Positions 6,836-37,964 of a DNA stretch of 64,000 bases are shown one piece after another. Every line of letters starts with the position of its first letter. Position 1 is the first letter of the stretch. Position numbers and translations under genes: made by a program. The stretch comes from Escherichia phage cardinal, in sequence record PQ567651.1; one strand, 5' to 3'. The notes below the pieces were generated by a model that saw nothing but the letters and a program-made list of their open reading frames with translations, was not told where the DNA came from and did not search any database.

Positions 6836-7429
6836 ATGAAAAAAGTTTTTGGAGTAGGCATTAACGATAGTGCAAAGCCGATCAAAGGTTGTCGATTCTA
6901 TGCAACATGGCGCAACATGTTACAACGTTGTTATAGTGAATCATATCAGGACAAAAGGCCATCTTATAAAGGTTGTAGTGTTTGTGATGAATGGTTGACG
7001 TTTAGCACTTTTCGTGCTTGGATGGAACAGCAGGATCACCAGGGAAAACAATTAGATAAAGATATAATAACACCGGGTAATAAACTCTATTGTCCTGATC
7101 GTTGCGTATTTGTAACGCAAGAAATGAATAGTTTGTTAACAGTTACAAAGAGTAACAAAGGGGATCATCCTTTGGGTGTTTCATTTTTGAATCATAAACC
7201 ATTGCCGCGCCCTTATTTAGCAACAATACGTTATAATAACGTAGTGGAAAGATTAGGGTACTATGTAGATCCTTTATCCGCTCATTTGGCCTGGAATAGG
7301 CGCAAACGTGAAATAATCATAGAGATTATTAGTAATGAAACGGATTCAAGGATCGCCGCTGGCTTGGCTTTACGTGTTGACGCTCTCGATCTGGCTTATG
7401 AAAATAAAGCGGAAATAACTTGCTTATGA
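6836..7429 (+). CDS. putative homing-endonuclease-like / DNA-binding protein
   Basis: AGGAGG RBS then ATG at 6836; motif ATWRNMLQRCYSESY...YKGCSVCDEWLTFSTF, resembling the W..M..RC...Y.G..VC..W..F..F signature of phage HNH-associated proteins (assigned from memory). Confidence 0.4.
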   Translation: MKKVFGVGINDSAKPIKGCRFYATWRNMLQRCYSESYQDKRPSYKGCSVCDEWLTFSTFRAWMEQQDHQGKQLDKDIITPGNKLYCPDRCVFVTQEMNSLLTVTKSNKGDHPLGVSFLNHKPLPRPYLATIRYNNVVERLGYYVDPLSAHLAWNRRKREIIIEIISNETDSRIAAGLALRVDALDLAYENKAEITCL

Positions 7430-7432
7430 CGC

Positions 7433-7461
7433 TTGACAAGCGCCCGACAAGGGCGCATAAT
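7433..7461 (+). promoter_or_regulatory. sigma70-like promoter (TTGACA, 17-nt spacer, CATAAT)
   Basis: TTGACA at 7433-7438 and CATAAT at 7456-7461; fires into the non-coding repeat region. Confidence 0.45.
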
Positions 7462-7682
7462 CTCTTACATAGACAGGAACGCCTACCAATGGCGCTAAAC
7501 TTGGTGATGATAGCCGCAGGGCATCGACAGCTATAATCGCCGGTAGCTCGTCTAAAATAAATTTGTAAAGAAATGTAAAGATAAAAATAATCGCTTGCTT
7601 TTGTTGTTGGTTATGCTATTCTTATTGTATGGCGAGGGGACACGGGAGCGCGAGACAAACACCGCCCCTGCGCGTTATTTTC

Positions 7683-7800
7683 TAAATGAGAAAATTCTCA
7701 TTTGCTAATGATTCTCATTCTCTTACTGAGAATGATTATCACTTACATAATTAAATGATAATGATTCTCATTTACAAATGAGAATGATTATCATACGCAT
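7683..7800. promoter_or_regulatory. cluster of AT-rich palindromes resembling Fur boxes
   Basis: tgataatgattctcatt and aatgagaatgattatcat match the GATAATGATAATCATTATC Fur consensus at about 14-15 of 19 positions; 3-4 overlapping copies. Confidence 0.35.
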
Positions 7801-7810
7801 ACCTATAAAA

Positions 7811-8035
7811 ACACGAAATTGAACTTTTCATTTTTGATTTTTCTACGGAAAAAGGCAAAAAAACTTTAAATAAACTGGGGAATTTTTAAAAAATTGAAGT
7901 TTTCATTTTCAAAATCTGGATAGAAATACGTACAAAAACTTTAAATAATTTTGACCAAACTTGAACTTTTCATTTTCAAAATTTGTACCCAAAAATCTGT
8001 AAAAACTTTAAATAATTTTGTACTTTTTATAAAAA
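7811..8035. repeat. three tandem ~72-bp direct repeats (iteron-like)
   Basis: Each unit contains ttgaa(c/g)ttttcatttt(c/t)aaaat and aaaaactttaaataa; AT-rich, no ORF. Confidence 0.6.
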
Positions 8036-8171
8036 TGATTTTACTGTTCTGTTATAAGTAGTAGTTAAGAGATAGTATGCCTTTTAAAGATCAGATACCA
8101 TAGTCAAACAAACAAATTAAATACTTTATTAACAGAGTACAGAATAATATTTACTCTGGATATATTATTCA

Positions 8172-8210
8172 GAGGGTGGATTTCCGTACATGAAACCCAC
8201 ACCCCTTTTT
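8172..8210 (+). terminator. putative intrinsic terminator
   Basis: gggtggatttc / gaaacccac stem followed by ccccttttt; no plus-strand CDS upstream, so it may end a non-coding transcript. Confidence 0.4.
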
Positions 8211-8331
8211 ATAAAAATAAAAATTTTCAAAATATCAGTAAATATCAGATTGTGCTTTTAGATAAACAGCAAGGTCTGTATGCCATTTTCCTAAAAGATT
8301 TTGTCCTTTCCAACAGTCCTTATTTTCCACA

Positions 8332-8787
8332 TCACGATCCCACATTCCCATTTTTGATACCATAAATAGAATCATAAGGGCTTGCCTCTACGAACTCCTT
8401 ATCTGCGTAAGCGATAAGTTTATTTTTGAGATCTTCATTTTGTGTGTATTTAAGATACAAACCACGTTTGACAATCTTCTCCCGTAAAGAAGTCCAGGTA
8501 TCTTCATCATAATCTTTAACTAATCTGCCTAGACGTTTATAATATGCTTGTTCTTTTTCTCCTGTATATCTTAGATCTCCGGTTAAAATAGAAGATGCAA
8601 TATTGTAATCATAAAACAAACATGCTTTTCTCCACATCATATATTGTTCCACACAAGTAAATTCGACAGAACTTGTGATAGAATTATTATACTTGGGAGC
8701 TAAAGGTTCAATAAAAGATGATAGATACCAGTTGCTAAATTCATCTTTTGCCGAGAAAAAGAACACATACTTGTCAGTAATCCGCAT
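8332..8787 (-). CDS. NADAR (YbiA/DUF1768-like) domain protein, putative ADP-ribose N-glycosidase
   Basis: 151 aa; FFFS..DEFSN, CVEQYMMWRKA, YKRLGR, WTSLREKIVKRGLYLKYTQNEDLKNKL and SPYDSIYGIKNG align with the conserved blocks of E. coli YbiA. Confidence 0.65.
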   Translation of the reverse strand: MRITDKYVFFFSAKDEFSNWYLSSFIEPLAPKYNNSITSSVEFTCVEQYMMWRKACLFYDYNIASSILTGDLRYTGEKEQAYYKRLGRLVKDYDEDTWTSLREKIVKRGLYLKYTQNEDLKNKLIAYADKEFVEASPYDSIYGIKNGNVGS

Positions 8788-23832: not shown

Positions 23833-24690
23833 ATGACCCAAAAACTATATGAGGATGTAATCGGATTCCTCGAACAAACATCCGAAGAATTTACTCGTGA
23901 AAATGCAAACAAACCTGCAATGATTGTTAATACTCACCGAGATTTACTAGCAGGTATCCTAAGCAAGCACATGGCAATGACCCATATTTTACCTGAAGAT
24001 TTAGCAGAATGGCATAAAAGTGGGTATGGTCACATCCACGATTTAGATTATTTACTCTCACCTTTAACTAATTGTTGCCTGGTAAATTACCAAGATATGC
24101 TTGAGAACGGTTTCCGTATTGGTAATGCACATATTGAAAAACCAAAATCTATCGGTGTAGCGACTACTGTCCTAACTCAAATTATTCAAGCAGTAGCTTC
24201 TAGCCAATATGGTGGACAAACTTGTGCACATGTTGATACTGGGCTTAGTCAATACGTTAAAGCAAGTTTTAATAAAATATATGCCGATGTTGGCGATTAT
24301 GATATTGCTATGCGTATGGTAGATAAACAGGTCTATGATGCAATGCAAACTTTAATCTACCAGGTGAACACTCTAATGAGTGTAAATGGTCAGTCACCTT
24401 TTATAACAATTAGTTTAGGTTTGGATACCTCTGCTTTTGGTAGAATGATCACTAAAAACTACCTAATGGTGCACAAACAAGGATTGGGAAAAGATAGGGT
24501 AACTCCTGTGTTTCCTAAAGTTATCTTCTTCTTGGAAGATGGTGTTAACATGAAAGCTGGCGATCCAAACTATGATTTGAAGCAACTGGCAATGGAGTGT
24601 TGTGCTGAACGCATTTATCCTGATTTTATCTCTGTACCTTTAAACAAAGAAGTTACAGGATCTTCAGATGGTCGCGTCACAAGCATGGGT
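23833..24690 (+). CDS. nrdD: anaerobic ribonucleoside-triphosphate reductase, exon 1
   Basis: Aligns with E. coli NrdD from NENANK...RDLLAGI through GDPNYDLKQLAMEC to ...VTGS...MG; exon ends on U after the Gly codon. Confidence 0.85.
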
Positions 24691-24970
24691 AAACTATAAC
24701 TGCTCATGTAAAATCTGCCTAAACGGGGGAACTCTCAACGAGACAATCCCGTGCTAAACGTAACAGAACTCCCAACACAGAAGAAGGGGGGTACTATTAC
24801 GAAATGCCTAACGACTAGCTGTGATGAATGTAGCAGCGTAGGGTGTAAGCCTATGACACCCCAAATGGTAGACATGCTTTAAGCATGAAGATATAGTCTG
24901 ATCTGCATGGTGACATGCAGCAGCACGTAATGGTGCGGGAGTGGCCTTGCGAGCCACTTTGAACATAATG
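24691..24970 (+). mobile_element. group I self-splicing intron (ORF-less) in nrdD
   Basis: 280 nt separating two NrdD halves that sit in different frames; core element ctaaacgggggaactctc...gacaatcccgtgctaaa closely resembles the phage T4 td/nrd intron core; 5' exon ends in U and intron ends in G. Confidence 0.75.
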
Positions 24971-25912
24971 TGTAGAAGTTTCTTGTCATACTATGCAACA
25001 GAGCAAGGTGAAAAATATGATGGTCGTTTCAACTTAGGCGTAGTTTCTTTAAACTTACCTATCATTGCAGCAGAGTCCCGTGAAAAGGGCATCTTATTTA
25101 CTGAACTGTTGGAACAACATATGGAGATGGCGTATAAGGCACATATGCTACGTGTTAACCGTATTAGACATACCAAAGCATCTCAAAACCCTACATTGTT
25201 TATGGAAGGGGCTTTAGCTCGACTAGAAGCTAATGAAGAGATTGGTAAACTATTTGAAGGTGGTTATGCCTCTATTAGTATCGGTTATGTAGGTTTAGCA
25301 GAAGCTATGGAGATTTTATACCCAAATAACACCAATCCAAAAGCAATGGGTAAAAACATCCTTCAATATATGAAGGATATCTGTTGCACATTTAAAGAAC
25401 GTTCTGGTTTAGCTTTTAGTTTGTATGGAACACCAGCAGAATCCTTGTGCTATAAATTTGCCAAAGCGTTAAATGATCGCTATCCTGGCTCTATTGATCG
25501 TGACTATTTGACAAACTCTTTCCATCAACCTGTATGGATGCACACTACCCCGTTCCAAAAGTGGGATTATGAGGAAGGTTTTGCACAAATTAGTAATGGT
25601 GGGAACATAGGTTATGTAGAAACACCAAACCTTAAAAATAACTTGCAAGCACTGGAAACTCTTGTAGATTATGCCTACAATAAAATTCCTTATTTTGGCG
25701 TGAACCAACCTGTAGATCAGTGTTTCAAATGTGGTTTTCATGGTGAATTTAAGGCAACAGCTAAAGGCTTCGAGTGTCCAAGTTGTGGAAATCATGAAGA
25801 AGAATCCATATCTGTGATCAGAAGAGTGTCAGGATACCTTTCTGCTCCTAACTCTCGCCCTTATAATAAAGGTAAGATGCAAGAGGTACTAGAAAGGGAG
25901 AAACACTTTTGA
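24971..25912 (+). CDS. nrdD: anaerobic ribonucleoside-triphosphate reductase, exon 2
   Basis: Begins CRSFLS (E. coli MGCRSFLG), contains NLGVVSLNLP, the C..C...C..C zinc ribbon and glycyl-radical motif RRVSGYL. Confidence 0.85.
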   Translation, partial: CRSFLSYYATEQGEKYDGRFNLGVVSLNLPIIAAESREKGILFTELLEQHMEMAYKAHMLRVNRIRHTKASQNPTLFMEGALARLEANEEIGKLFEGGYASISIGYVGLAEAMEILYPNNTNPKAMGKNILQYMKDICCTFKERSGLAFSLYGTPAESLCYKFAKALNDRYPGSIDRDYLTNSFHQPVWMHTTPFQKWDYEEGFAQISNGGNIGYVETPNLKNNLQALETLVDYAYNKIPYFGVNQPVDQCFKCGFHGEFKATAKGFECPSCGNHEEESISVIRRVSGYLSAPNSRPYNKGKMQEVLEREKHF

Positions 25913-27967: not shown

Positions 27968-28624
27968 ATGACTGTTAAGCATATTTCTTTTGATGTATGG
28001 AACACTCTTATTACTGCTAATCCTTTGTATGCAGAAGAGCGCAACAAGGTAATTGCCGAGTATGCCTCTTGTTCTGAGGCAGAAGCAGCAACTGTATATA
28101 AAGAAGTAAAAACTCTCCTGGATTTAAGAGCAGAAAAAGGCATTTGTGGAACATCTAGAAATGCTTGGGAAACACTTTCTGCTCATTTGAACATTGATCT
28201 TGATAAAGTAGATGGGTTAAAAAGAGACTGTTTAGCAATGTTTATAAAACATCCTCCAATATTAAACCCTGAACTTTGCAAGAAGTTGGAAGAGCTAAGT
28301 TCAACCTATTCTTTGAGTATTAAAAGCAATACCAATTTTGTACCTGGTAGTTTCTTAGCTGTATATTCTGGCTTGACAAAATTACCATTTGACTTTATGC
28401 ATTTTTCTGATGAGTTTTGCTTGTGTAAACCAGATCCCAGGTTTTTTAAACTCTCTTTTGATGAAATGGTAACGTTTGATCTCGCACCAGAGGAGATCTT
28501 ACACGTTGGAGATAGTTTGATCTATGATGGAAAAGCTGTTGACATAGGGATGAAGTTCTGTCATATTATTAATCCAGAAGACTTGTTGGCTAAACTTAAA
28601 AAAGAGGAACTTATTAATGCGTAA
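27968..28624 (+). CDS. HAD-superfamily hydrolase-like protein with atypical motif I
   Basis: Motif I ISFDVWNTL (Asp nucleophile, but Trp where the second Asp is expected), motif III CKPDPRFF, motif IV HVGDSLIYDGKAVD. Confidence 0.55.
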   Translation: MTVKHISFDVWNTLITANPLYAEERNKVIAEYASCSEAEAATVYKEVKTLLDLRAEKGICGTSRNAWETLSAHLNIDLDKVDGLKRDCLAMFIKHPPILNPELCKKLEELSSTYSLSIKSNTNFVPGSFLAVYSGLTKLPFDFMHFSDEFCLCKPDPRFFKLSFDEMVTFDLAPEEILHVGDSLIYDGKAVDIGMKFCHIINPEDLLAKLKKEELINA

Positions 28625-29474
28625 TCAAATTCAACATTTTGCTAATATTTTTACTAACCTGAAGGAAGCAAAATTTAACATTGCAGATTATTCCAAGCTA
28701 AAGTTTGGTAGTAACCAGGCAGCAAAAAGAATGGGGCGCATTCTGGCTGAAAGTTTCTTTTCCAAGTATGAAGAACGACTGGTAAATGAAAGTTTTGTTG
28801 TTATTCCATCTCCATATAACTATGTGAAAAATGCAGCTACAGTGTTATCTGAACATTTTGTAGATCACCTCAACTACCTAATCTCTATCAAAGGAGGTAA
28901 AGCAGTGGAGTGGGATATCGTTCATCGTAAAGTGAGCTATATCAATGATTATGGATTTCTTAGCAAAGAAGATCGTAAGGCTTTGATCGATGGTGACACT
29001 TTCTCTATCAATCGTGATTTCTGGGGTAATAAAACTCTGATTTTCATTGATGATGTTAATATTACAGGAACGCACGAAGAAAAACTTATTGAAATTTTAG
29101 ACAAAGAAGGTGTTGAAAACGATACGTTTTTCCTGTACTTTGCAAAGTATGAAGGTACAGAAGCCAACACCGAAGCTGCACTTAACTTCAACTATATCAA
29201 TAACCTGGCAGCTTTTATTAAAATGATTAAGCAAGAAACTGATGCTAAATGTTTGGTTCGTCCTATTAAGTATCTAATGAGTCAAAGCGAAGTTGATTTT
29301 AAAATTGCACTTTCACAGCTTCCTTTGTATTATGTAGAACAACTGTTCTTTGGTTGCCTTGCAGAAGGCTACAATAACATTGAAAAATATAAAGAGAACT
29401 TTGATTTCCTGCGTCAATTTTTTGAAAGCAACATTATCAACAAATCTAATGTTAAAGGGGATTATTATGTCTAA
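28617..29474 (+). CDS. phosphoribosyltransferase (PRTase type I) domain protein
   Basis: PRPP-binding loop LIFIDDVNITGTH (hydrophobic-DD-xx-TG-T); overlaps the HAD gene stop, so probably co-translated. Confidence 0.55.
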   Translation: MRNQIQHFANIFTNLKEAKFNIADYSKLKFGSNQAAKRMGRILAESFFSKYEERLVNESFVVIPSPYNYVKNAATVLSEHFVDHLNYLISIKGGKAVEWDIVHRKVSYINDYGFLSKEDRKALIDGDTFSINRDFWGNKTLIFIDDVNITGTHEEKLIEILDKEGVENDTFFLYFAKYEGTEANTEAALNFNYINNLAAFIKMIKQETDAKCLVRPIKYLMSQSEVDFKIALSQLPLYYVEQLFFGCLAEGYNNIEKYKENFDFLRQFFESNIINKSNVKGDYYV

Positions 29475-30183
29475 TAAAGTAATGACTTTCGGAGATCCTA
29501 TCACCAATATTACAGAAAAAGATTTTGGGCGTGTAGCAACAGATAAAGATGGTGTCTTAAGAATTCGTGTACAAGGTATTACAGCACAGGATGAATATGC
29601 TGTGTATGTTTCAGGTCTTAACTATATTGATGATCGCATTACACAAAACTTTGCACTGATCGGTGGTGTAGAGAAAATGTATTGGGAAGATGAAATTGTA
29701 ACAAGTTATCCGGCAGGTATCATTGAGGTATACGGTGATCTTTTAGCAGCAGCCGAGAGAGGCGATATAGACGCTATAGCACACTGCTGTAACTGTTTTT
29801 GCACTATGGGTAGTGGTATTGCACCAAAAATTAAAAGCAAGTGGCCTGGTGCGTTTAAAGCAGATTGTGCCACTAAACGTGGTGATTATAAAAAATTAGG
29901 TACGTTTACCAAATATACAGAAAACAATTTGACAATTTATAATTTATATGGACAATATGGTTATAGTCGTCGTGAGGAAGGTAAGCGTGACCTGAATTAT
30001 GAAGCTATCTACAATGCGTTAGATAGTATGGGAGACGATGTTGTATCTTCAGGCGGTAAAGTTGTAGGTTTACCGATGCTGGGTTGTGGTTTGGCTGGAG
30101 GGTCTTGGAATATTGTAAAACTTATGATCGAAGAAACTCTAGTAAACAAAGGTTTAAATGTAATTGTTTACAAACTGAAATAA
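29467..30183 (+). CDS. macrodomain protein (TARG1/DarG-like), putative ADP-ribosyl hydrolase
   Basis: C-terminal ~150 aa align with human TARG1 as recalled: AIAHCCNCFCTMGSGIAPKIKSKW vs [23 protein letters not shown], and VGLPMLGCGLAGGSWNIVKLMIEETL...VIVYKL vs [26 protein letters not shown]...ITVYTL; N-terminal ~90 aa unassigned. Confidence 0.65.
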   Translation: MSNKVMTFGDPITNITEKDFGRVATDKDGVLRIRVQGITAQDEYAVYVSGLNYIDDRITQNFALIGGVEKMYWEDEIVTSYPAGIIEVYGDLLAAAERGDIDAIAHCCNCFCTMGSGIAPKIKSKWPGAFKADCATKRGDYKKLGTFTKYTENNLTIYNLYGQYGYSRREEGKRDLNYEAIYNALDSMGDDVVSSGGKVVGLPMLGCGLAGGSWNIVKLMIEETLVNKGLNVIVYKLK

Positions 30184-30192
30184 GGAGAAAGT

Positions 30193-30399
30193 ATGGCAGG
30201 TGTTTTAGCAGTATTAGGTTGTTTTATTGTTGTGTTTTTGATTGTGTTAATCCCTAGTTGGCTGCTGCTTTTAGCATACAACTATATGATTGACATTATC
30301 GGTTTAGACTGGCATCATGTTCCTGTAACGTTTTGGAGTGTAGTCTGTGTGACGTTCATTCTTGCGGTACTTCGTGGTATCTTTCAATCTAACAAATAA
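30193..30399 (+). CDS. hypothetical small membrane protein
   Basis: 68 aa, two hydrophobic helices. Confidence 0.4.
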   Translation: MAGVLAVLGCFIVVFLIVLIPSWLLLLAYNYMIDIIGLDWHHVPVTFWSVVCVTFILAVLRGIFQSNK

Positions 30400-30426
30400 G
30401 AGAGGATTTTTATATGCGTAAAGTAA

Positions 30427-30663
30427 ATGTTGAAGTGCTTGAAAAAATTTAGAAACACTCGTGATTGTACTATCGGCAAGGTTTACGAGGCTATTCTCCT
30501 TGAAGATGGAGATCAAGTTCCTGCCCCGTATCACGCCTTTAATGGTCAGATTAGCAAAGTGGAAGGTGGTATTGCTATTTGCTTTATTGATGACGTAGGT
30601 GATGCTGTAGCTTTCCCTATCATTAACAAAGAAGATAAACTTAAAATTACAGAACTGAACTAG
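30427..30663 (+). CDS. hypothetical small protein
   Basis: 78-aa ORF; start uncertain (a 12-codon ORF with a better RBS lies just upstream in another frame). Confidence 0.35.
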   Translation: MLKCLKKFRNTRDCTIGKVYEAILLEDGDQVPAPYHAFNGQISKVEGGIAICFIDDVGDAVAFPIINKEDKLKITELN

Positions 30664-30740
30664 TTGACTTTCTTTAAAAACAGTTTATAGTATAAGACAT
30701 AGAGCGGAGGATTGTCCTCCGCATTAAAGAGGAGAAAAGA

Positions 30741-31718
30741 ATGCAACTGGGTTTCCCAATTATTGATGTGGTTGTTTTAGTGGGTATTTTAGTCTTGTCG
30801 ATTTGTATTGACTTCTTTGGACACAGAGAAAACAAAGAAATTTCATTTAAATCGGCAGTTGGTTGGTCAATTTTCTGGATTGGAGTATCATTAGCCTACT
30901 ATGGTTTTGTATACTTCCAACACGGTGCTGATTTTGCGAGCTTGTTCTTGAGTGGGTATGTGTTGGAGAAATCTCTTTCTGTAGATAACTTAGTAGTATT
31001 TGTGGCAGTATTCGCAAGTTTTGGTATTAAAAGCACACACTTGCAACACAAGATTCTACTTTGGGGTATTGCAGGTGCGATTGTCTTCCGAGGTGTGTTT
31101 GTAGCAGTAGGCACTTACTTGTTGAGTTTGGGCTGGTATGTTAATATCTTCTTCGGTGCTGTCATCCTTTTCTGTGCGGCTAAAATGGTATTCGCTGGAG
31201 ATAATGATGCAGAAGTTGATTACTCTAAACACTGGGCTACTCGCATTGTTCGTAAGCTGTTCCCTGTATCTGATCAGATGGATGGTGAGAAGTTCTTCAC
31301 AATCAAAAATGGTGTTCGTGTAGCAACTCCGGCTCTGGTTTGTGTGTTTGTAATGGAAATGGTTGACGTAATCTTTGCAGTAGACTCTGTTCCAGCAGTA
31401 ATTGCAGTGACACAAGAACCTCTGCTTGTATTTTCTTCGATGCTCTGTGCAATCTTAGGTTTACGTGCTCTGTTCTTTGTTCTTAGTGTTGCACTGAAGT
31501 ATTTGGTTCATCTGGAGAAAGCAGTTATCGTAGTCCTGGTATTTGTGGGTGCAAAACTGATGTATCATCCGTTTGCAGAAACTCTGCACGCAAAAATGAG
31601 TTTCCTGCCAGCACACATTGATCCGACGATCAGTATGTATATTGTGTTAGGTACTCTTGGGTTGGGTGTTGTTGCAAGTTTAATCTTCCCTGAAAAAGAA
31701 GATCAGACTGTTGCTTAA
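30741..31718 (+). CDS. TerC-family integral membrane protein
   Basis: Multiple transmembrane helices and both TerC signature repeats: LEKSLSVDNLVVFVAVF and MVDVIFAVDSVPAVIAVT. Confidence 0.75.
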   Translation: MQLGFPIIDVVVLVGILVLSICIDFFGHRENKEISFKSAVGWSIFWIGVSLAYYGFVYFQHGADFASLFLSGYVLEKSLSVDNLVVFVAVFASFGIKSTHLQHKILLWGIAGAIVFRGVFVAVGTYLLSLGWYVNIFFGAVILFCAAKMVFAGDNDAEVDYSKHWATRIVRKLFPVSDQMDGEKFFTIKNGVRVATPALVCVFVMEMVDVIFAVDSVPAVIAVTQEPLLVFSSMLCAILGLRALFFVLSVALKYLVHLEKAVIVVLVFVGAKLMYHPFAETLHAKMSFLPAHIDPTISMYIVLGTLGLGVVASLIFPEKEDQTVA

Positions 31719-31724
31719 TTCATT

Positions 31725-31746
31725 AAGCCCCTTCGGGGGCTTTGTT
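31725..31746 (+). terminator. intrinsic terminator
   Basis: agcccc-ttcg-ggggct followed by ttgttg. Confidence 0.5.
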
Positions 31747-31950
31747 GAGGTGATCTGATGGTGGTTTTACGTGTTCTTTGGATTCTGTTTGAAAATATTT
31801 GTTTTGCTCTAGGGTTGTTTTGTTTGATTTTTATCTTGACAACATATATTGATAACCATACAATTACTATCAACAGGAACGGAGAACAGATGTATTGTTT
31901 CTCTAGGGATTTTAAAAATTGTGTTGAGACTTTAAATGAGAGGGTTACAA

Positions 31951-32541
31951 ATGAAAAACATTAAATCTTTTATTGTTGCAGTTGTTTTAGGTAGTGCATT
32001 GCTGGTAGGTTGTGATGATTCTGAAAATGTACAAAATCAACGTTACCAACAAACACCAAATCAGATGGTAGATGAACAATATGTAAATCAGCCTGCACCT
32101 CAAGTTGTTCAAGCAGCACCTGCACAACCTTCAACAGTTGTTGTGCAAGGAGGCGGCAGTGGTTCTTCTGGCGTAGGTGAGTTTGCTACAGGTATGCTTC
32201 TTGGTCATATGTTGAGTGGTAATAGTGGCGGTGGTGGTTATAGAGATGGCGGTAGCAATACAACAATTATTAATAACAACGCTGCTCCTACAACTAACAG
32301 TAAAGCATATACAACACAAAAACATAGTTTTTATGATAAACAAGGGAATACATATACAACAACTAAACAAAACACAATTAAGCAGCAAAGTGTACAAACG
32401 TATTCACGCCCATCAACAACAAAAGTGAATAGTGATTACTCTGCTCGTAAGTCTTACTCAAGCCCTATTAGCTCTTATAGTAAGTCTTCGAAAAGTTATT
32501 CTTCGTCGAAACGTAGTTTTAGTAGCTCACGTCGTCGTTAA
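31951..32541 (+). CDS. lipoprotein with low-complexity S/T/N-rich C-terminal region
   Basis: Signal peptide with lipobox LLVGC; remainder rich in Q/S/T/G with SYS..SK repeats. Confidence 0.55.
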   Translation: MKNIKSFIVAVVLGSALLVGCDDSENVQNQRYQQTPNQMVDEQYVNQPAPQVVQAAPAQPSTVVVQGGGSGSSGVGEFATGMLLGHMLSGNSGGGGYRDGGSNTTIINNNAAPTTNSKAYTTQKHSFYDKQGNTYTTTKQNTIKQQSVQTYSRPSTTKVNSDYSARKSYSSPISSYSKSSKSYSSSKRSFSSSRRR

Positions 32542-32576
32542 TAATTTAATACAGATTAAATAAGAAGGAGAAACAG

Positions 32577-33428
32577 ATGAAACTAGAAGTTGGTAAAGTG
32601 TATCGCCTGGAAGGTTGGATCTTTAATCAAGAAATTCTTGAGAAGAATAAAGATGGTTTTGAGTTTGTTGGTACTACCAAAGAAAGTATGCACGATGACG
32701 AATACTGTAAATTCGTTGGTAAAAATACAGGTCAAGAACAATTTTGCTTTAAAAGCGCAATCGGTGATTATGCTTCTGTAATGCCAACACCAGAAAAGAC
32801 TTCGAAGCAATATACTGTCTTTGGTGTAAAACTTGAAGAACTTGTAGAACACCCACGTTTTGAAGAGTTCAAGGTTGCTGCAATGCGCAAGCATTCTGAA
32901 ATTAAAATACATAATTTGTTTGATTTAGAAGATCGGTTTGATATCTTTATGTATGATCGCAGGGAAAAGCATTTTGATGCAACGACTTCAAAATTTGCTG
33001 CAACAGAGGATATTAAAATCCTTGATGTTGATACCTTTCTTGAGAGTGTATCGTTTGTATTCATCCATAAATACAAGAAACGTAGTGATCATAAACGTGT
33101 GAAAGGAACTCCTCGTAAGAAACGTACTGTAAACAAAGCAACTTTGCACTTCACTTCTGGTGATAAATATACTCTCAAAGGGTTTGAAAGTGTTTTGTAT
33201 GATGCTGGAACGGGTAATATCAAGTTTATTATTAAGGCAACCTACAAAGGTACGGTATTGCACGAAGAGGCTGTTACACTACCTGTATTCGATATCTCTC
33301 GTGTTGAGGTACGGGGTGTTAAAGAGTCCTTCGATCTGGATTTCTTAACTGCTAATACCACGGGTTATGTTAATCTGGAAGCAGATGGAGCATTTATTAC
33401 TACAAATTATTTAGATATGTTTGTTTAA
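32577..33428 (+). CDS. hypothetical protein
   Basis: 283-aa ORF with AAGGAG RBS. Confidence 0.5.
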   Translation: MKLEVGKVYRLEGWIFNQEILEKNKDGFEFVGTTKESMHDDEYCKFVGKNTGQEQFCFKSAIGDYASVMPTPEKTSKQYTVFGVKLEELVEHPRFEEFKVAAMRKHSEIKIHNLFDLEDRFDIFMYDRREKHFDATTSKFAATEDIKILDVDTFLESVSFVFIHKYKKRSDHKRVKGTPRKKRTVNKATLHFTSGDKYTLKGFESVLYDAGTGNIKFIIKATYKGTVLHEEAVTLPVFDISRVEVRGVKESFDLDFLTANTTGYVNLEADGAFITTNYLDMFV

Positions 33429-33496
33429 TACTTAACTTGTGTTATGATGGTGGTACAGAGGTATCACCATTTACTAAAGAATATGGAGGAAATTGA

Positions 33497-34600
33497 ATGT
33501 CCAGTCCTTTTATCAGTGCCGTAAAAAGCAAACCGTCTGAAATGAGTGTATTCACGGCAACAACAGAAAAAAGTAAGTCTTTGTTTGCTCCAAGTGCTAT
33601 GGATGCAAGCCCTGTATATGCCCCTGCTGTTGCACGCCCTGTACAAATGCTGCCTCCAATGTCTCGTGAAGAGATTGAACAGGTTGGTGCTGATGCAGGA
33701 CTTACTCTTCGTAACCTTAATGCTGAAGTGCTTAAACACCAGCGTTCATCTCAGGGAGATGAAATGAGTGAACGTTTAACTGCGCTTATTAAGCAAGCAA
33801 AGCAACTTGATCCTAACTCTATTAAACAATCTAAAGGTTTAGGTAAACTAGTTAAGAAAGTTTTAGGTATGAAAGAAGATTTGTTTGGAGAATTTGACAC
33901 CATCAATAACCGTATTGAAGGTTTGGTAAAGACACTCCAAACAGACTTGAAAAAAGAAGAAGATTCTTTACGATATCTGCAACGTTTAGAGGAAGCTATT
34001 GCAAAATATGCTCTTAGCTTAAACAGGGATATAGAGCTTCTAACAGCTACTTATGAAAAAGAAGAAGTTCGCCTTAATACACTACCTGAAAATGAGGTAG
34101 AAGAGCGTCAACGTACTCGTGATACTATGGATCTGCTTGAAATTCGTATTGCAGACCTGAAAGCCTTACGCTTACTATGTGTTCAGATGGGGCCACGTGT
34201 ACAAAGTATGCAGAAAGTATCTGCAAGTTTGATGCGATCAGCCCGTAATATTGTGAATAATGTTATTCCTGCTTACTCTGCAAACTTTTCTATGTATATT
34301 GAAAGTCTACGCCAGAAGAAAGCAGCCGATACACAGAACAATGTACTGAATGAATTTAATGCTGCTATTGCAATGGGTAGTGATCTGGCTGCACAAAACC
34401 AGATTGAAGCTACACAACTTGCTAATCGTCAAGTATTGGATATTGAAACATTGCGTCGTGATCAAGAAAACTTAGTTAAAATGTTGGAAGAAACTAACCG
34501 AATCAACACTGAAGCCCGTGCTGCTCGTATTGATTACATTCAAGAAGTGCAGTCTCTTGAAGATGGTATGATTCAAACTGTTAAACGTGGTCTACTTTAA
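33497..34600 (+). CDS. TelA-like (toxic anion resistance / KlaB family) protein
   Basis: 367 aa, coiled-coil-rich; C-terminal blocks VIPAYSANFSMYIESLRQKKA, NEFNAAIAMGSDL and IDIETLRRDQENLVKMLEE match the TelA family pattern (assigned from memory). Confidence 0.55.
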   Translation: MSSPFISAVKSKPSEMSVFTATTEKSKSLFAPSAMDASPVYAPAVARPVQMLPPMSREEIEQVGADAGLTLRNLNAEVLKHQRSSQGDEMSERLTALIKQAKQLDPNSIKQSKGLGKLVKKVLGMKEDLFGEFDTINNRIEGLVKTLQTDLKKEEDSLRYLQRLEEAIAKYALSLNRDIELLTATYEKEEVRLNTLPENEVEERQRTRDTMDLLEIRIADLKALRLLCVQMGPRVQSMQKVSASLMRSARNIVNNVIPAYSANFSMYIESLRQKKAADTQNNVLNEFNAAIAMGSDLAAQNQIEATQLANRQVLDIETLRRDQENLVKMLEETNRINTEARAARIDYIQEVQSLEDGMIQTVKRGLL

Positions 34601-34613
34601 GGAGAAATATATT

Positions 34614-34820
34614 ATGAATATTAAAATTTACAAACTGTCTGGTTCTATGATTGCTGTTCAGTATGACAATGAAGATCGTTATGTTCTCCTCCAGGATGCT
34701 TGGTTAGATGATCCTAATGTATTCACTGTCCTGCGAGAACTACGTGCTGTCTATACCTATTCTTCTAAAGATGGTTTTGACAATTCAACAATGGAATTGG
34801 TAAAAGAGGAGAATGTGTAA
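34614..34820 (+). CDS. hypothetical small protein
   Basis: AAGGAG RBS then ATG (MNIKIYKL...). Confidence 0.4.
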   Translation: MNIKIYKLSGSMIAVQYDNEDRYVLLQDAWLDDPNVFTVLRELRAVYTYSSKDGFDNSTMELVKEENV

Positions 34821-35020
34821 TGAGTAAAGATATTCACTTAACTCGTGAAGAATTGCAAACCATTATGGAAGATGCTTTCATTGATGGTTGGAAACAAGGT
34901 CAAGAATCAGATTGGTATGATGCCGAAGATTTTTTGTATTATCATATGACTGCACCTGTAGACGAGCAAACACACTCTGAAACAACTTTGGCTTTAATTG
35001 ATCTTAAGGCTGGTGTATAA
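34820..35020 (+). CDS. hypothetical small acidic protein
   Basis: 66-aa ORF, translationally coupled. Confidence 0.4.
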   Translation: MSKDIHLTREELQTIMEDAFIDGWKQGQESDWYDAEDFLYYHMTAPVDEQTHSETTLALIDLKAGV

Positions 35021-35583
35021 TGGGGTGTTTTAGTTTCTTGTGCAAAGAGTCTGGTAATGCTGCTCTTTCTACCTCTTTCGATGGCTCTCCTTGCTACCTA
35101 TTTCTTTTGAAAGGTGGTAAGGTTGTCGAAGAGATGTATGGGAATTATGATAGCTATGGTAGTGTTTTCTCTAACGAAGAAGATAAACATGGCAATCGTA
35201 AAAGATTCAAGTGGTCTATGCCTTGGGAAGAAGTTTGTAATTTGATGTTCTCTTCCGATCTTGGAGATGGGATTGCTCTGGTATTAGAAGAGCACTTTAC
35301 AGGCGAGATCCCAACAGAAAGATCTGAAGAAGATCCTAACCAGGGTTGGGGTGATGGGGAAGAAGATCCAGATTGCTTCTTCAGCACTGAAAATAATAAA
35401 TTTAAACGTGTTGACAATCCTTACCACAAAGTGCATAATACTTGCATTGAGACAGAAGAAGACTCAAAGCTAGAAATTGAAGATGATTTAGTTGTAACTA
35501 TCTCTTTAAACGAGTTGCAAAAGATCACCAGAGAGGCTTTCTATTTAGGCTTGAGAGCAGGTAAAGGAGAAGACAGTGCTTAA
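35020..35583 (+). CDS. hypothetical protein
   Basis: 187-aa ORF, acidic. Confidence 0.45.
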   Translation: MGCFSFLCKESGNAALSTSFDGSPCYLFLLKGGKVVEEMYGNYDSYGSVFSNEEDKHGNRKRFKWSMPWEEVCNLMFSSDLGDGIALVLEEHFTGEIPTERSEEDPNQGWGDGEEDPDCFFSTENNKFKRVDNPYHKVHNTCIETEEDSKLEIEDDLVVTISLNELQKITREAFYLGLRAGKGEDSA

Positions 35584-35845
35584 ATTTAATATCAAAGACG
35601 ACAAATCAGATGAACCTAAATGTTTTGGAGAACTTGACGTAGGTGATACATTTGTATATTATGTTGCCTATCAAGATTCTGGTTTAGATACGTTCAGAAA
35701 CTTAGTGTTTATTAAAGTTAATACAAACCAAGCAATGTGTCTGAACGGTTCGCAAAGAGGTCAAATTAGCTGTATTTCGTATGATACAGAAATGGTAGAA
35801 GTGGATTTAGAAGTTACTAACATTACACTCAGAAAGGAGAAATAA
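35576..35845 (+). CDS. hypothetical protein
   Basis: 89-aa ORF. Confidence 0.4.
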   Translation: MLKFNIKDDKSDEPKCFGELDVGDTFVYYVAYQDSGLDTFRNLVFIKVNTNQAMCLNGSQRGQISCISYDTEMVEVDLEVTNITLRKEK

Positions 35846-35846
35846 T

Positions 35847-36640
35847 ATGTCCAATAAAATCAGTCTTAAAAAACGTCAAGAAACTCTTACCGTATCTCTG
35901 CGTAAGAAAAAGATTAACGATGTTGTTCTTCGTGTCGGTAGCGCCTTAGATATTTCGGGTAGTATGTGTGAGCTGTATCGTGATGGCACTGTTAGTGATT
36001 TTGTAGGTAAGCTGCTGCCGTTTGGTATGAAGTTTGATGATAATGCACAGATTGACATGTGGGCTTTCAATAGTTCTTCTTTTGAACTGCCTCCTGCAAC
36101 GGCTGATGTATATGATGATTATGTCGGCTCTTGTATGTCTAACGTTTGCATCAATGGTGGTACAGCTTATGCTCCAGTAATGCAAGAGATCTATGATACA
36201 TACTTCGGTAGTGTACCTATGAAAAATATTACACGCGAAGTCGTTGAGTATGAAGAAGTTCCGGCTAAGGGTTTCCTTGCTAAACTAACTGGTAAAAAGA
36301 ACTTGTAGAAGTAACACGTACTGTTGTAGAACAGGTTGTAGATACTGATGCACAAGTTGATCGTACTCCTGCAATGATTTTCTTCCAAACTGACGGGGAG
36401 AACATGGATACTTCAGCAGTACGTAGCTTACTGAACAAACACCGCAATACGCCTGTTTACTGGTTTATGGTTGGTGTAGGTAATGCAAACTTTAAATTCC
36501 TGAAAGACTTGGCAAAGGAATACGATAATGTTGACTTTATCGGTATTGCAGATTTGTCCTTGTCTGATGAAGAACTTTACGATAAACTGTTATCCGAAGA
36601 GTTTGGTGAGTGGGTTAAAAAATTTGGAGCAAAAGCGTAA
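35847..36640 (+). CDS. vWA-domain protein (TerY-like), reading frame interrupted by a -1 shift near 36291-36300
   Basis: MIDAS motif DISGSM in frame 0 (35847..36308); the vWA domain continues as IFFQTDGENMD in the -1 frame (36296..36640); junction at ggT AAA AAG. Confidence 0.55.
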
Positions 36641-36712
36641 AAAACGCTTGACTTTGTAGAAAAGATTAGTAAAATAGACAACGTAAATTAACAACAAAGG
36701 AGATAATAAATT

Positions 36713-37309
36713 ATGACTCAGAAAATTTCCCTGAAAAAAGGTTCTAGCGAAAAAGTTTCTCTGAAAAAGATCGCACCAGCACTGAAACGCATTCGTCTGG
36801 AATTCTCTTGGAAATCTAACGAAAAACTGGATCTGGATGTTAGTGCTCTGATTTGCCGACACAATGCATCTGGTCTGCCGGAACTGTTGTCTCCTCGTCA
36901 CCTGGTGTGCTACGCGCAGAAATTTGATCCTGAACGTTCTACTTTTGCAGGTGAAGATGTTCGTGATGGTGTAGGACAGATGGAGCAGATCGATGTTACT
37001 CTGGATAATATCTCTGCTGAAGCACAGGAAATTGCATTCGTAATTACTATTGATGACGAAACGGGTAAGAAACGCCTTGGTCACGCTACCGAAGGTTTCC
37101 TTAAAATCTTCGATGATGAACGTAACGTTGAACTGCTGGATTTTGACTTCTTGGCTCCAGAACTTGCAGGTAATACCATTTGCCACGTTGCCTCCCTGGT
37201 GCGGGAAGATAATGAATGGAAACTGAAAGCATATGGTGTAGGTAAAGCTGGACTTGACATTTATGATGTAGTTAAAGCGTTTGGCGCTGGTGACGATTGG
37301 TTCGAGTAA
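36713..37309 (+). CDS. TerD-domain protein
   Basis: ISLKKG...VSLKK...LEFSWKS...LDLDVSALI...GEDVRDGVG..EQIDV...IAFVITI....FDFLAPELAGNT matches TerD/TerZ family blocks. Confidence 0.75.
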   Translation: MTQKISLKKGSSEKVSLKKIAPALKRIRLEFSWKSNEKLDLDVSALICRHNASGLPELLSPRHLVCYAQKFDPERSTFAGEDVRDGVGQMEQIDVTLDNISAEAQEIAFVITIDDETGKKRLGHATEGFLKIFDDERNVELLDFDFLAPELAGNTICHVASLVREDNEWKLKAYGVGKAGLDIYDVVKAFGAGDDWFE

Positions 37310-37317
37310 TAAATCAT

Positions 37318-37342
37318 AGCGCCCTTCGGGGCGCATATTTTA
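37318..37342 (+). terminator. intrinsic terminator
   Basis: agcgccc-ttcg-gggcgc followed by atatttt. Confidence 0.5.
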
Positions 37343-37361
37343 AATAGAAGAGGAGAAAACA

Positions 37362-37964
37362 ATGGGTATTACTTTAGAAGGTCAAAAACTTATTCGTAGC
37401 GGTAATTTTCTTGTAGATATTGACAACAATGAAGATTATGCTTTAGAAGTTAGTGATGTACTGTTTGATGCTTTGCAGTCTGGTTTCAATTTTGAAGTTT
37501 ATGAAGTAATCCGTGGAACTAAACTCAGAGAAACCCTTGGATCAACTAGTGATGTTTATTCTGCGATCTGGCAATATTTCGGGTTAATGGATGGTAAGAC
37601 ATACCTTACTGATAGTTATTCTGAAGATGTTGTTTATCTTGATATGGAAGAGTTTCGTCGTCTGTTCAAGAATGAAGAAAATGAAGAAGAGGGCGAACTT
37701 TTTGAAGGAATTACTCTCGAAGGTAATGTTGAAATTGTGTATAAAGCAGGAAAAACATTCCACTTGCGCGAAAACGGTAAAGCAAAAGTTGATTTTGTAA
37801 ACAAGACAGTGACAACCGAACATAATTATCTTAAAGATGGTCAACCAGCTTTTGAACGTGTAAAAATTAAATTTAAAGTGTTGTCTGCACTAGTTACGGA
37901 TCAAGAACGTATTGATTTTGTAGAAGATGGTGTAGTAACTCATACAAAGGTTTACAATATCTAA
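37362..37964 (+). CDS. hypothetical protein
   Basis: 200-aa ORF with GAGGAG RBS. Confidence 0.5.
   Translation: MGITLEGQKLIRSGNFLVDIDNNEDYALEVSDVLFDALQSGFNFEVYEVIRGTKLRETLGSTSDVYSAIWQYFGLMDGKTYLTDSYSEDVVYLDMEEFRRLFKNEENEEEGELFEGITLEGNVEIVYKAGKTFHLRENGKAKVDFVNKTVTTEHNYLKDGQPAFERVKIKFKVLSALVTDQERIDFVEDGVVTHTKVYNI

Follow-up and report, generated by a model that had tools for sequence, protein, structure and literature searches.

The 10 kb at positions 27968-37964 of a 64,000-nucleotide (nt) stretch of Escherichia phage cardinal (record PQ567651.1; this whole stretch is the window below) encode a HAD-superfamily hydrolase, a type I phosphoribosyltransferase (PRTase), a macrodomain protein and the tellurite-resistance (Ter)-type proteins TerC, TelA, a TerF-type vWA protein and TerD. 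We read this block as three separable modules placed end to end, and not as one pathway, and give this reading an even chance of being correct: the macrodomain would act against host DarTG, the HAD and PRTase_3 proteins would produce a small molecule, and the Ter proteins would protect the membrane of the infected cell. A preliminary description, made from the sequence without database searches, had treated the genes as a single coupled assemblage. This view did not hold, as homologs of the macrodomain gene occur elsewhere and the HAD-PRTase_3 pair has, in some loci, no Ter gene within 10 kb. The individual assignments fared better: profile searches support the HAD, type I PRTase, TARG1/DarG-type macrodomain, TerC, TelA and TerD calls (Table 1), and the proposed lipoprotein has a lipobox (LLVG-C).

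A long-resident gene block of phi92-like phages

Following the annotation of phage Paula, the block corresponds to phi92 gp187 through gp171. Full-length matches of 95-99% identity were found in 54 phage genomes, the best being those of Escherichia phages arall (98.7%), Paula and outra; the matching phages are Justusliebigviruses (phi92-like, Stephanstirmvirinae). Four records labelled "Campylobacter phage" with C. jejuni as host (MG065639, MG065645, MG065656 and MG065689) are also 97.8% identical to the block; this host label is probably wrong, or the samples were contaminated. All named genes of the block are on the + strand, where the preliminary description had placed them, and its location of the block in the replication region of a lytic phage was likewise accurate: nrdD/nrdG (anaerobic ribonucleotide reductase) and an AAA ATPase gene lie upstream, genes for a cell-wall hydrolase, glycosyltransferases and a T7-like primase/helicase lie downstream, and the phage is virulent.

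Phage phAPEC8 of the sister genus Phapecoctavirus has orthologs in the same order with 50-81% amino acid identity (tblastn). NG86 ratios of nonsynonymous to synonymous substitution (dN/dS) for the block genes against Phapecoctavirus are 0.09-0.31, values that are only rough because dS is near saturation. Synteny with the more distant Klebsiella phage 05F01 is partial: TelA-gp176-gp174-vWA-TerD is kept, and the place of TerC is taken by a DUF475 protein that also matches Pfam TerC. The block is conserved across Stephanstirmvirinae, with purifying selection between genera. GC content at third codon positions (GC3) is 0.20-0.40 for the block genes, matching the phage background (window GC 0.38), and the Ter part gave no megablast match to 5,426 complete E. 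coli genomes. The preliminary description had allowed that the cluster might prove to be a recently captured host fragment; with phage-like GC3, no E. coli match and conservation in related phages, nothing was found in favour of this. The block is a phage gene set of long residence, belonging to an ancestral accessory region of phi92-like phages, and not a recent host capture.

Translational coupling, which had been proposed for the whole block, is seen within sub-blocks. The gp188 and HAD genes are separated by 2 nt, the PRTase gene has an 8-nt overlap both with the HAD gene before it and with the macrodomain gene after it, and between TelA and vWA the junctions range from -14 to +1 nt. Coupling is not supported before TerC, TelA and TerD, which are preceded by gaps of 77, 68 and 72 nt, respectively. 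The first of these gaps contains a promoter-like site with a GC-rich hairpin, and a putative host-type promoter has been annotated at the corresponding position of phAPEC8; another promoter-like site precedes TerD (36648-36675). Such sites are weak evidence because their total count in the scan was not above that in shuffled sequences. A GC-rich hairpin (GCGCCCTTCGGGGCGC), terminator-like on both strands, closes the TerD unit.

The macrodomain gene and the HAD-PRTase_3 pair

The macrodomain protein gp185 consists of a domain of the TARG1/DarG clade (residues ~88-236) and a lineage-specific N-terminal extension (residues 1-85). It matches DarG models (PADLOC 7e-14, NCBIfam 5e-13), and its best relatives in the PDB are SCO6735 (5e3b), BT1257 (2fg1) and TARG1 (3e-10 for the TARG1 structures). 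gp185 does not correspond to a full-length DarG, as the match covers only positions 4-147 of the 338 in the NCBIfam model (49 bits; cutoff 250), and no DarT toxin was matched among its neighbours (PADLOC). tblastn links gp185 to tk.4 of T4-like phages (8e-12 and 3e-10). Homologs of the macrodomain were found in 2,756 phage records, mostly from T4-like, Felix O1-like and other groups, and the majority of these records belong to groups for which the Ter searches gave no matches.

T4 tk.4, the product of which has been named AdfM, is required for growth on hosts expressing DarTG2 (bioRxiv 10.1101/2025.11.20.689424, a 2025 preprint). gp185 and Tk.4/AdfM have homologous macrodomains and both resemble the DarG macrodomain, but gp185 has an additional N-terminal domain of ~85 residues, its gene overlaps that of the PRTase, and the anti-DarTG2 role is known from T4. 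On the most economical reading, gp185 is most likely a stand-alone anti-DarT counter-defence factor: by analogy with AdfM, it would strip ADP-ribose from DNA and so neutralize a DarTG-type host defence. The genomic position of the gene varies among phages. In 05F01 it is three genes upstream of the HAD-PRTase pair and not adjacent to it, some 8 kb separate it from the pair in Xanthomonas phage XaC1, and no macrodomain gene was called in a phage-like contig (L012) that carries TerC, TerD, vWA, HAD and PRTase_3 genes together in a different order.

The hydrolase gp187 matches a PHROG "hydrolase" family over its full length (7e-119) and, weakly, the HAD-IA, dehalogenase and nucleotidase models of NCBIfam. 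In HAD phosphatases, the Asp at position +2 of motif I serves as general acid/base. The phosphatase form of this motif, DxDx(T/V) with Asp+2, is absent from gp187, where motif I is SFDVWNTL (D-V-W-N-T) and a Trp sits where Asp+2 is usual. The pattern SFD-x-W-x-TL recurs, with invariant Trp, in 22/22 PRTase_3-linked HADs, while the nucleophile and motifs II-IV are intact (D9, S120, K154, G181, D182 and D187 are invariant). At the level of sequence, the HADs paired with PRTase_3 define a distinct HAD subfamily, for which atypical chemistry is predicted because Trp replaces Asp+2.

gp186 is a ComF-like PRTase_3 in which the phosphoribosyl pyrophosphate (PRPP)-binding loop (hydrophobic-DD-x-x-TG-x-T/H) is intact (LIFIDDVNITGTH), with D145, D146, T150 and G151 invariant in the homolog alignment. 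A sequence search of the PDB returned no solved structure for homologs of PRTase_3 or of TelA. Together, the two enzymes would most likely use PRPP and some base or nucleophile to make a small molecule that resembles a nucleotide or nucleoside. A scheme in which the PRTase makes a nucleotide and the HAD then removes the phosphate is plausible, but insecure because of the invariant Trp at Asp+2, though the PRPP loop is intact. Bacterial Ter biosynthetic modules often also include ATP-grasp and TIM-barrel enzymes. The present block has the PRTase and HAD genes, adjacent to each other, and neither an ATP-grasp nor a TIM-barrel enzyme among its open reading frames (ORFs; Pfam).

HAD and PRTase_3 genes stand side by side, HAD first, in 22/22 loci, which come from Stephanstirmvirinae, XaC1, Rhizobium phages, Caulobacter phage CcrColossus, metagenomic phage contigs and 15 bacterial or metagenome-assembled genome (MAG) loci. 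In a pattern scan of the genomes of 100,044 species, the HAD-PRTase_3 subfamily was almost confined to Rhizobium, Sinorhizobium and Ensifer (plasmid pRL10 included). No Ter gene was detected within up to 10 kb of these Rhizobiaceae pairs (tblastn with phage Ter queries; Pfam for locus L020); in L020, the one locus annotated with Pfam, the pair is a small island in metabolic surroundings, and a ClpP-like gene comes next. Some phage contigs also have the pair without nearby Ter genes. Two Bacteroidota MAG contigs, by comparison, have TerC or TerD 2-7 kb from the pair, and in XaC1, CcrColossus and the Rhizobium phages the pair is far from Ter genes, yet TerD, vWA or TelA is present elsewhere in the genome. 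Because both Ter-linked and Ter-free loci exist, we regard the pair as an autonomous cassette that often, but not always, travels with Ter genes. In 05F01, a gene for a PARP-like protein with WGR, PARP regulatory and PARP catalytic domains (7335-8615 of locus L008) is located four genes 3' of the pair, and a radical SAM gene then follows.

The Ter genes and their possible role

TerC (gp182) is accompanied by two small membrane proteins, gp184 and gp181, that travel with it within Stephanstirmvirinae, and by the lipoprotein gp180. The body of gp180 is a long Q/S/T-rich sequence of low complexity with a basic tail; tblastn found no counterpart of gp180 in phAPEC8 or 05F01, and the protein is confined to the genus. 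Under the standard sorting rule for E. coli lipoproteins, Asp at +2 leads to retention in the inner membrane, and gp180 is therefore predicted to remain there. A role in the envelope would be consistent with this predicted location of the lipoprotein and with the small membrane proteins on either side of TerC. TerC is 93-96% identical to its counterparts in some Phapecoctavirus phages (Mt1B1_P17, vB_EcoM_REC and phiWec188) and about 71% identical to those in others, which suggests recent exchange of the gene between Justusliebigvirus and Phapecoctavirus.

TelA (gp178) has 78.5% identity to the phAPEC8 protein and 39.5% to that of 05F01. Among the small ORFs that follow it, gp176 is conserved in both of these phages (tblastn), and gp176 and gp174 travel with TelA and vWA within Stephanstirmvirinae. 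gp174 was considered as the counterpart of a small ORF located between TelA and vWA in phage phiPsa397 and was rejected in the absence of similarity. TerD (gp172) aligns weakly with Klebsiella TerD (PDB 2kxt; E=8e-15, 58 bits).

The vWA protein (gp173) had been described as TerY-like. This assignment was rejected: both halves of the gene match PF10138, which is of the TerF-C type, whereas PF00092 was below its cutoff and none of the PADLOC TerY-P families was matched. Nor did Pfam detect in the block a Ser/Thr kinase or PP2C, the partners expected of TerY-P. The metal ion-dependent adhesion site (MIDAS) motif DxSxS is present (LDISGSM). In this genome only, the gene is split into two parts (35847-36308 and 36374-36640) by the loss of 1 nt, with A5 at 36294-36298 in place of the A6 of relatives; it is intact (264 amino acids) in Paula and EmilieFrey, and the extra A is found in 12/12 listed relatives. 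A putative -1 slip on AAA-AAG would regenerate exactly the protein of the relatives. The A5 tract could be a homopolymer sequencing error, a strain-specific lesion or pseudogene, or a case of recoding.

A core of TerC or DUF475, TelA, TerF-type vWA and TerD is shared by five or more phage lineages: Stephanstirmvirinae, Otagovirus, Caulobacter and Brevundimonas phages, Acinetobacter phage ME3 and Rhizobium phages. The order in phiPsa397 (Otagovirus) is TelA, small ORF, vWA, TerC and TerD. As the third of the modules proposed here, TerC/Alx, the small membrane proteins and the lipoprotein would assemble at the inner membrane with cytoplasmic TelA, TerF-type vWA and TerD. The resulting complex would change the inner membrane of the infected cell or its ion properties, and the cell would stay resistant to superinfecting phages and to membrane-damaging insults until the phage cycle is completed, much as the plasmid ter operon protects against phages and pore-forming colicins. 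The product of the HAD-PRTase_3 pair may feed this module, as in the model of Aravind, but need not do so.

The analysis shows gene identities, conservation, modularity and purifying selection, from which all functional steps are inferred. Several points weigh against the three-module reading. TerB is regarded as a core sensor of Ter systems, and none of 20 cluster ORFs matched it (PF05099) at E<=0.01, in agreement with the preliminary description. The Ca-binding motif of TerD is degenerate, being only partly conserved where the canonical GDNRTGEGDGDDE aligns with GEDVRDGVGQMEQ, and the vWA protein, frameshifted in this genome, may be dispensable. Without the general acid/base Asp in the HAD, the step from nucleotide to nucleoside is uncertain. 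In phiPsa397, ~2.7 kb with eight genes separate the macrodomain gene from the cluster of TelA, vWA, TerC and TerD; this spacing and the 8-nt overlaps of the HAD, PRTase and macrodomain genes in the present genus leave room for a functional link between the macrodomain and the rest. Finally, our literature search returned no experimental test of any phage ter gene.

A more specific reading, which we consider rather unlikely, is that the DxW-type HAD and PRTase_3 form an autonomous, mostly phage-borne cassette that makes an effector, and that, in phages with Ter genes, this effector controls a minimal TerB-less TerC/TelA/vWA/TerD membrane complex shutting the cell to rival phages. The biochemical function of Ter, whether on plasmid, chromosome or phage, has been unresolved since the 1990s. 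If such a cassette-controlled complex exists, it would offer a genetically tractable model for this 30-year-old enigma in a phage of E. coli K-12. Phages able to plate on K-12, such as EmilieFrey, PaulScherrer and JohannJBalmer of the BASEL collection, carry the compact TerB-less Ter set next to a separable HAD-PRTase_3 cassette and an AdfM-like macrodomain gene, which brings the hypotheses of superinfection exclusion, metal handling and metabolite signalling within reach of genetics.

The main rival explanation, metal homeostasis, is in our judgement unlikely. TerC/Alx would here export Mn(II), Zn(II) or Ca(II), or metalate secreted proteins, with TerD and vWA as metal-binding partners in the cytoplasm, and the phage would thereby adjust the metals available to its enzymes or withstand metal stress in the gut. 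TerC exceeds the score cutoff of the TerC/Alx "metal homeostasis" family, and the MIDAS motif of the vWA protein is intact; TelA and the recurrent four-gene set, however, would be left unexplained, and the Ca-binding motif of TerD is degenerate. The block also adjoins ribonucleotide reductase genes, but NrdD/NrdG are glycyl-radical and Fe-S enzymes, not Mn enzymes. Proteins of the TerC family export Mn(II) and metalate exoenzymes, and Klebsiella terC gives Zn/Mn resistance (PMC12054061 and references therein), whereas no yybP-ykoY Mn riboswitch precedes the phage gene (no Rfam match in 30300-30900 at the gathering threshold or at E<=1).

We hold decidedly unlikely an integrated model in which the HAD, PRTase and macrodomain proteins handle one nucleoside- or ADP-ribose-like metabolite that TerD senses, driving a TerC/TelA/vWA complex. 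The macrodomain gene is unlinked in 05F01, XaC1 and L012, its homologs are found in thousands of phage records mostly from groups without Ter matches, its T4 homolog has a demonstrated stand-alone anti-DarTG2 role, and the HAD-PRTase_3 pair occurs without Ter neighbours. Set against this are the two 8-nt overlaps, the same gene order in Phapecoctavirus, the location of the macrodomain gene within 3 kb of Ter genes in phiPsa397, the presence of HAD-PRTase_3 beside TerC/TerD/vWA in L012, and the model of Aravind for Ter biosynthetic modules (PMC7824862).

Still more doubtful is a Ter-independent counter-defence, with the HAD-PRTase_3 pair producing a decoy or else breaking down or sequestering a nucleotide signal of host immunity or a precursor of it. 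In favour of this are the autonomy of the pair and its wide distribution in phages, the atypical HAD motif, which suggests unusual chemistry, and some of its neighbours: in Rhizobium phage RHph_TM61 the pair is two genes from a nicotinamide mononucleotide (NMN) adenylyltransferase/Nudix gene, and in XaC1 it is 6-8 kb from Nudix and ADP-ribose-binding (macrodomain) genes. Most phage lineages with the pair, however, also carry Ter genes somewhere in the genome, and this points to a Ter connection. The idea that the block is a passenger, a host ter fragment captured recently, is refuted by the GC3 values, the lack of E. coli matches, the weak alignment to Klebsiella TerD, and purifying selection and conservation across genera.

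Close counterparts of the three-module block have been published. Iyer et al. (2021; PMC7824862; Viruses 13:63) reported that Acinetobacter phage vB_AbaM_ME3 and Caulobacter jumbo phages encode Ter systems accompanied by PRTase and HAD genes for "signal biosynthesis", and proposed that they act against superinfecting phages. These systems share TerD, TerC, TelA, TerF-type vWA, PRTase and HAD with the present block, and ME3 and the Caulobacter phages were recovered as carriers of homologs in our searches with the block genes. The block differs in belonging to a non-jumbo coliphage lineage of ~146 kb, where that paper mentions "smaller tailed phages" only in passing, and in being a contiguous 10-kb set with small membrane proteins, a predicted inner-membrane lipoprotein and no TerB. 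Virulent Klebsiella phage phiKp34 has a terC/terF-vWA/terD/telA cluster, described as possible anti-viral genes with citation of earlier work on phiPsa phages (PMC8386662, DNA Res 2021). These phiKp34 and phiPsa (Otagovirus) clusters, like ours, belong to virulent phages, but have other gene orders and neighbours; phiPsa397 has Nampt and PRPP synthetase genes, not HAD-PRTase_3.

The plasmid and chromosomal terZABCDEF operon of bacteria (IncHI2 R478, E. coli O157 and Klebsiella) shares with the block TerC, a TerD-domain protein and the vWA domain of TerF. In contrast to the operon with its five TerD paralogs, the phage has a single TerD domain and no TerB; two genes encode its vWA and TerD, in the opposite order to that within TerF; TelA, which derives from another system (telAB/kilA), is present; the PRTase is a PRTase_3; and there is no DNA similarity to E. 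coli genomes. terC, terD and terZ are needed for phage inhibition and for resistance to pore-forming colicins in bacteria, and deletion of terC in Klebsiella raises sensitivity to phage and to Zn/Mn (PMC12054061).

As early as 2015, TerD and tellurite-resistance proteins were pointed out in phi92 (gp172, gp173 and gp178), and phage terD genes were discussed again in 2026. GenBank labels already attached to the genes include "tellurite resistance protein", "TerC", "TerD family", "VWA domain-containing protein", "putative phosphoribosyltransferase", "HAD-like" and "putative macrodomain protein". Our literature search found no paper joining Justusliebigvirus with a macrodomain, or TerC/TerD with "anti-phage". 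Because phage Ter systems with PRTase and HAD have been published and the genes are annotated in dozens of genomes, the cluster is real but already known; the preliminary description overstated its novelty, given the existing annotations and the 2021 hypothesis of superinfection exclusion by phage Ter. The cluster is no discovery, and its residual value lies in a tractable K-12 phage model and in its modular dissection, which guards against over-reading gene adjacency in phage accessory regions.

Remaining open reading frames and neighbouring sequences

Three ORFs of the block were without assignment in the preliminary description, which proposed fold searches for them; a usable model was obtained for one, and the searches yielded no function for any of the three. 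gp175 belongs to an unusually well conserved family with 50-65% identity and invariant MGCFSFxC (N-terminal), GNYDSYG and DPNQGWG motifs, and was modelled confidently (predicted local distance difference test score [pLDDT] 84.5), but no structural neighbour was found in the PDB, and all matches in BFVD were orthologs of gp175 itself. Since its homologs lie in unrelated phage contexts without Ter genes, gp175 probably does not belong to the Ter system. gp179 had no Pfam, NCBIfam or credible PADLOC match, and its single-sequence AlphaFold2 model (pLDDT 40) was discarded. Only two close homologs, near-identical, were found among 5.8 billion proteins, and only 16 remote relatives among 1.84 billion representatives. 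gp171 had no tblastn match at this position in phAPEC8 or 05F01; as it is absent there and lies behind the hairpin, it is probably outside the system.

Table 1. Features of the block at positions 27968-37964 of the window; gp numbers follow phi92.
Feature	Coordinates	Strand	Evidence or remarks
HAD-superfamily hydrolase (gp187)	27968..28624	+	PF00702 E=1.1e-5, 26.4 bits, exactly at curated cutoff
PRTase_3, ComF-like type I phosphoribosyltransferase (gp186)	28617..29474	+	PF15610 1.2e-41
Macrodomain protein (gp185)	29467..30183	+	PF01661 2.4e-7
Small hydrophobic protein, predicted membrane protein (gp184)	30193..30399	+	60% identity to phAPEC8
Promoter-like site TTGACT-16-TATAGT and GC-rich hairpin, 5' of TerC	30664..30722	+	Consensus scan
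TerC/Alx-family inner-membrane protein (gp182)	30741..31718	+	PF03741 2.6e-38; NCBIfam TIGR03718 323 bits, cutoff 246
Small membrane protein (gp181)	31758..31964	+	49% identity to phAPEC8; weak DUF6693 match below cutoff
Lipoprotein (gp180)	31936..32541	+	Lipobox LLVG-C, Asp at +2
gp179	32577..33428	+	Only C-terminal ~100 amino acids common to other Stephanstirmvirinae
TelA-like protein (gp178)	33497..34600	+	PF05816 5.1e-34; PHROG "tellurite resistance" 9.5e-137
Two small ORFs (gp177, gp176)	34587..35020	+	Junctions of -14 and -1 nt after TelA
gp175	35020..35583	+	Widespread phage family, no Pfam entry
Small ORF directly 5' of vWA gene (gp174)	35576..35845	+	tblastn: phAPEC8 (two copies), 05F01
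TerF-C-type vWA gene (gp173)	35847..36640	+	PF10138 on both halves, 1.2e-15 and 9e-18
TerD-domain protein (gp172)	36713..37309	+	PF02342 4.1e-28
GC-rich, terminator-like hairpin closing TerD unit	37319..37334	.	Terminator-like on both strands
gp171	37362..37964	+	Beyond hairpin after TerD; own PHROG only

Upstream of the block, a group I intron is located inside nrdD at 24645-24920 on the + strand (Rfam, 72 bits, E=2e-16), with the exon ORFs of nrdD at 23833-24699 and 24941-25912. The intron is present in UAB_1 and ECGD1, and 29 records cover at least 80% of the intron query; muut and Nernie are without it. As its presence is polymorphic among Justusliebigviruses, the intron is probably mobile. 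Short stretches identical to it are also found in T4-like phages, one of them under an annotated td gene.

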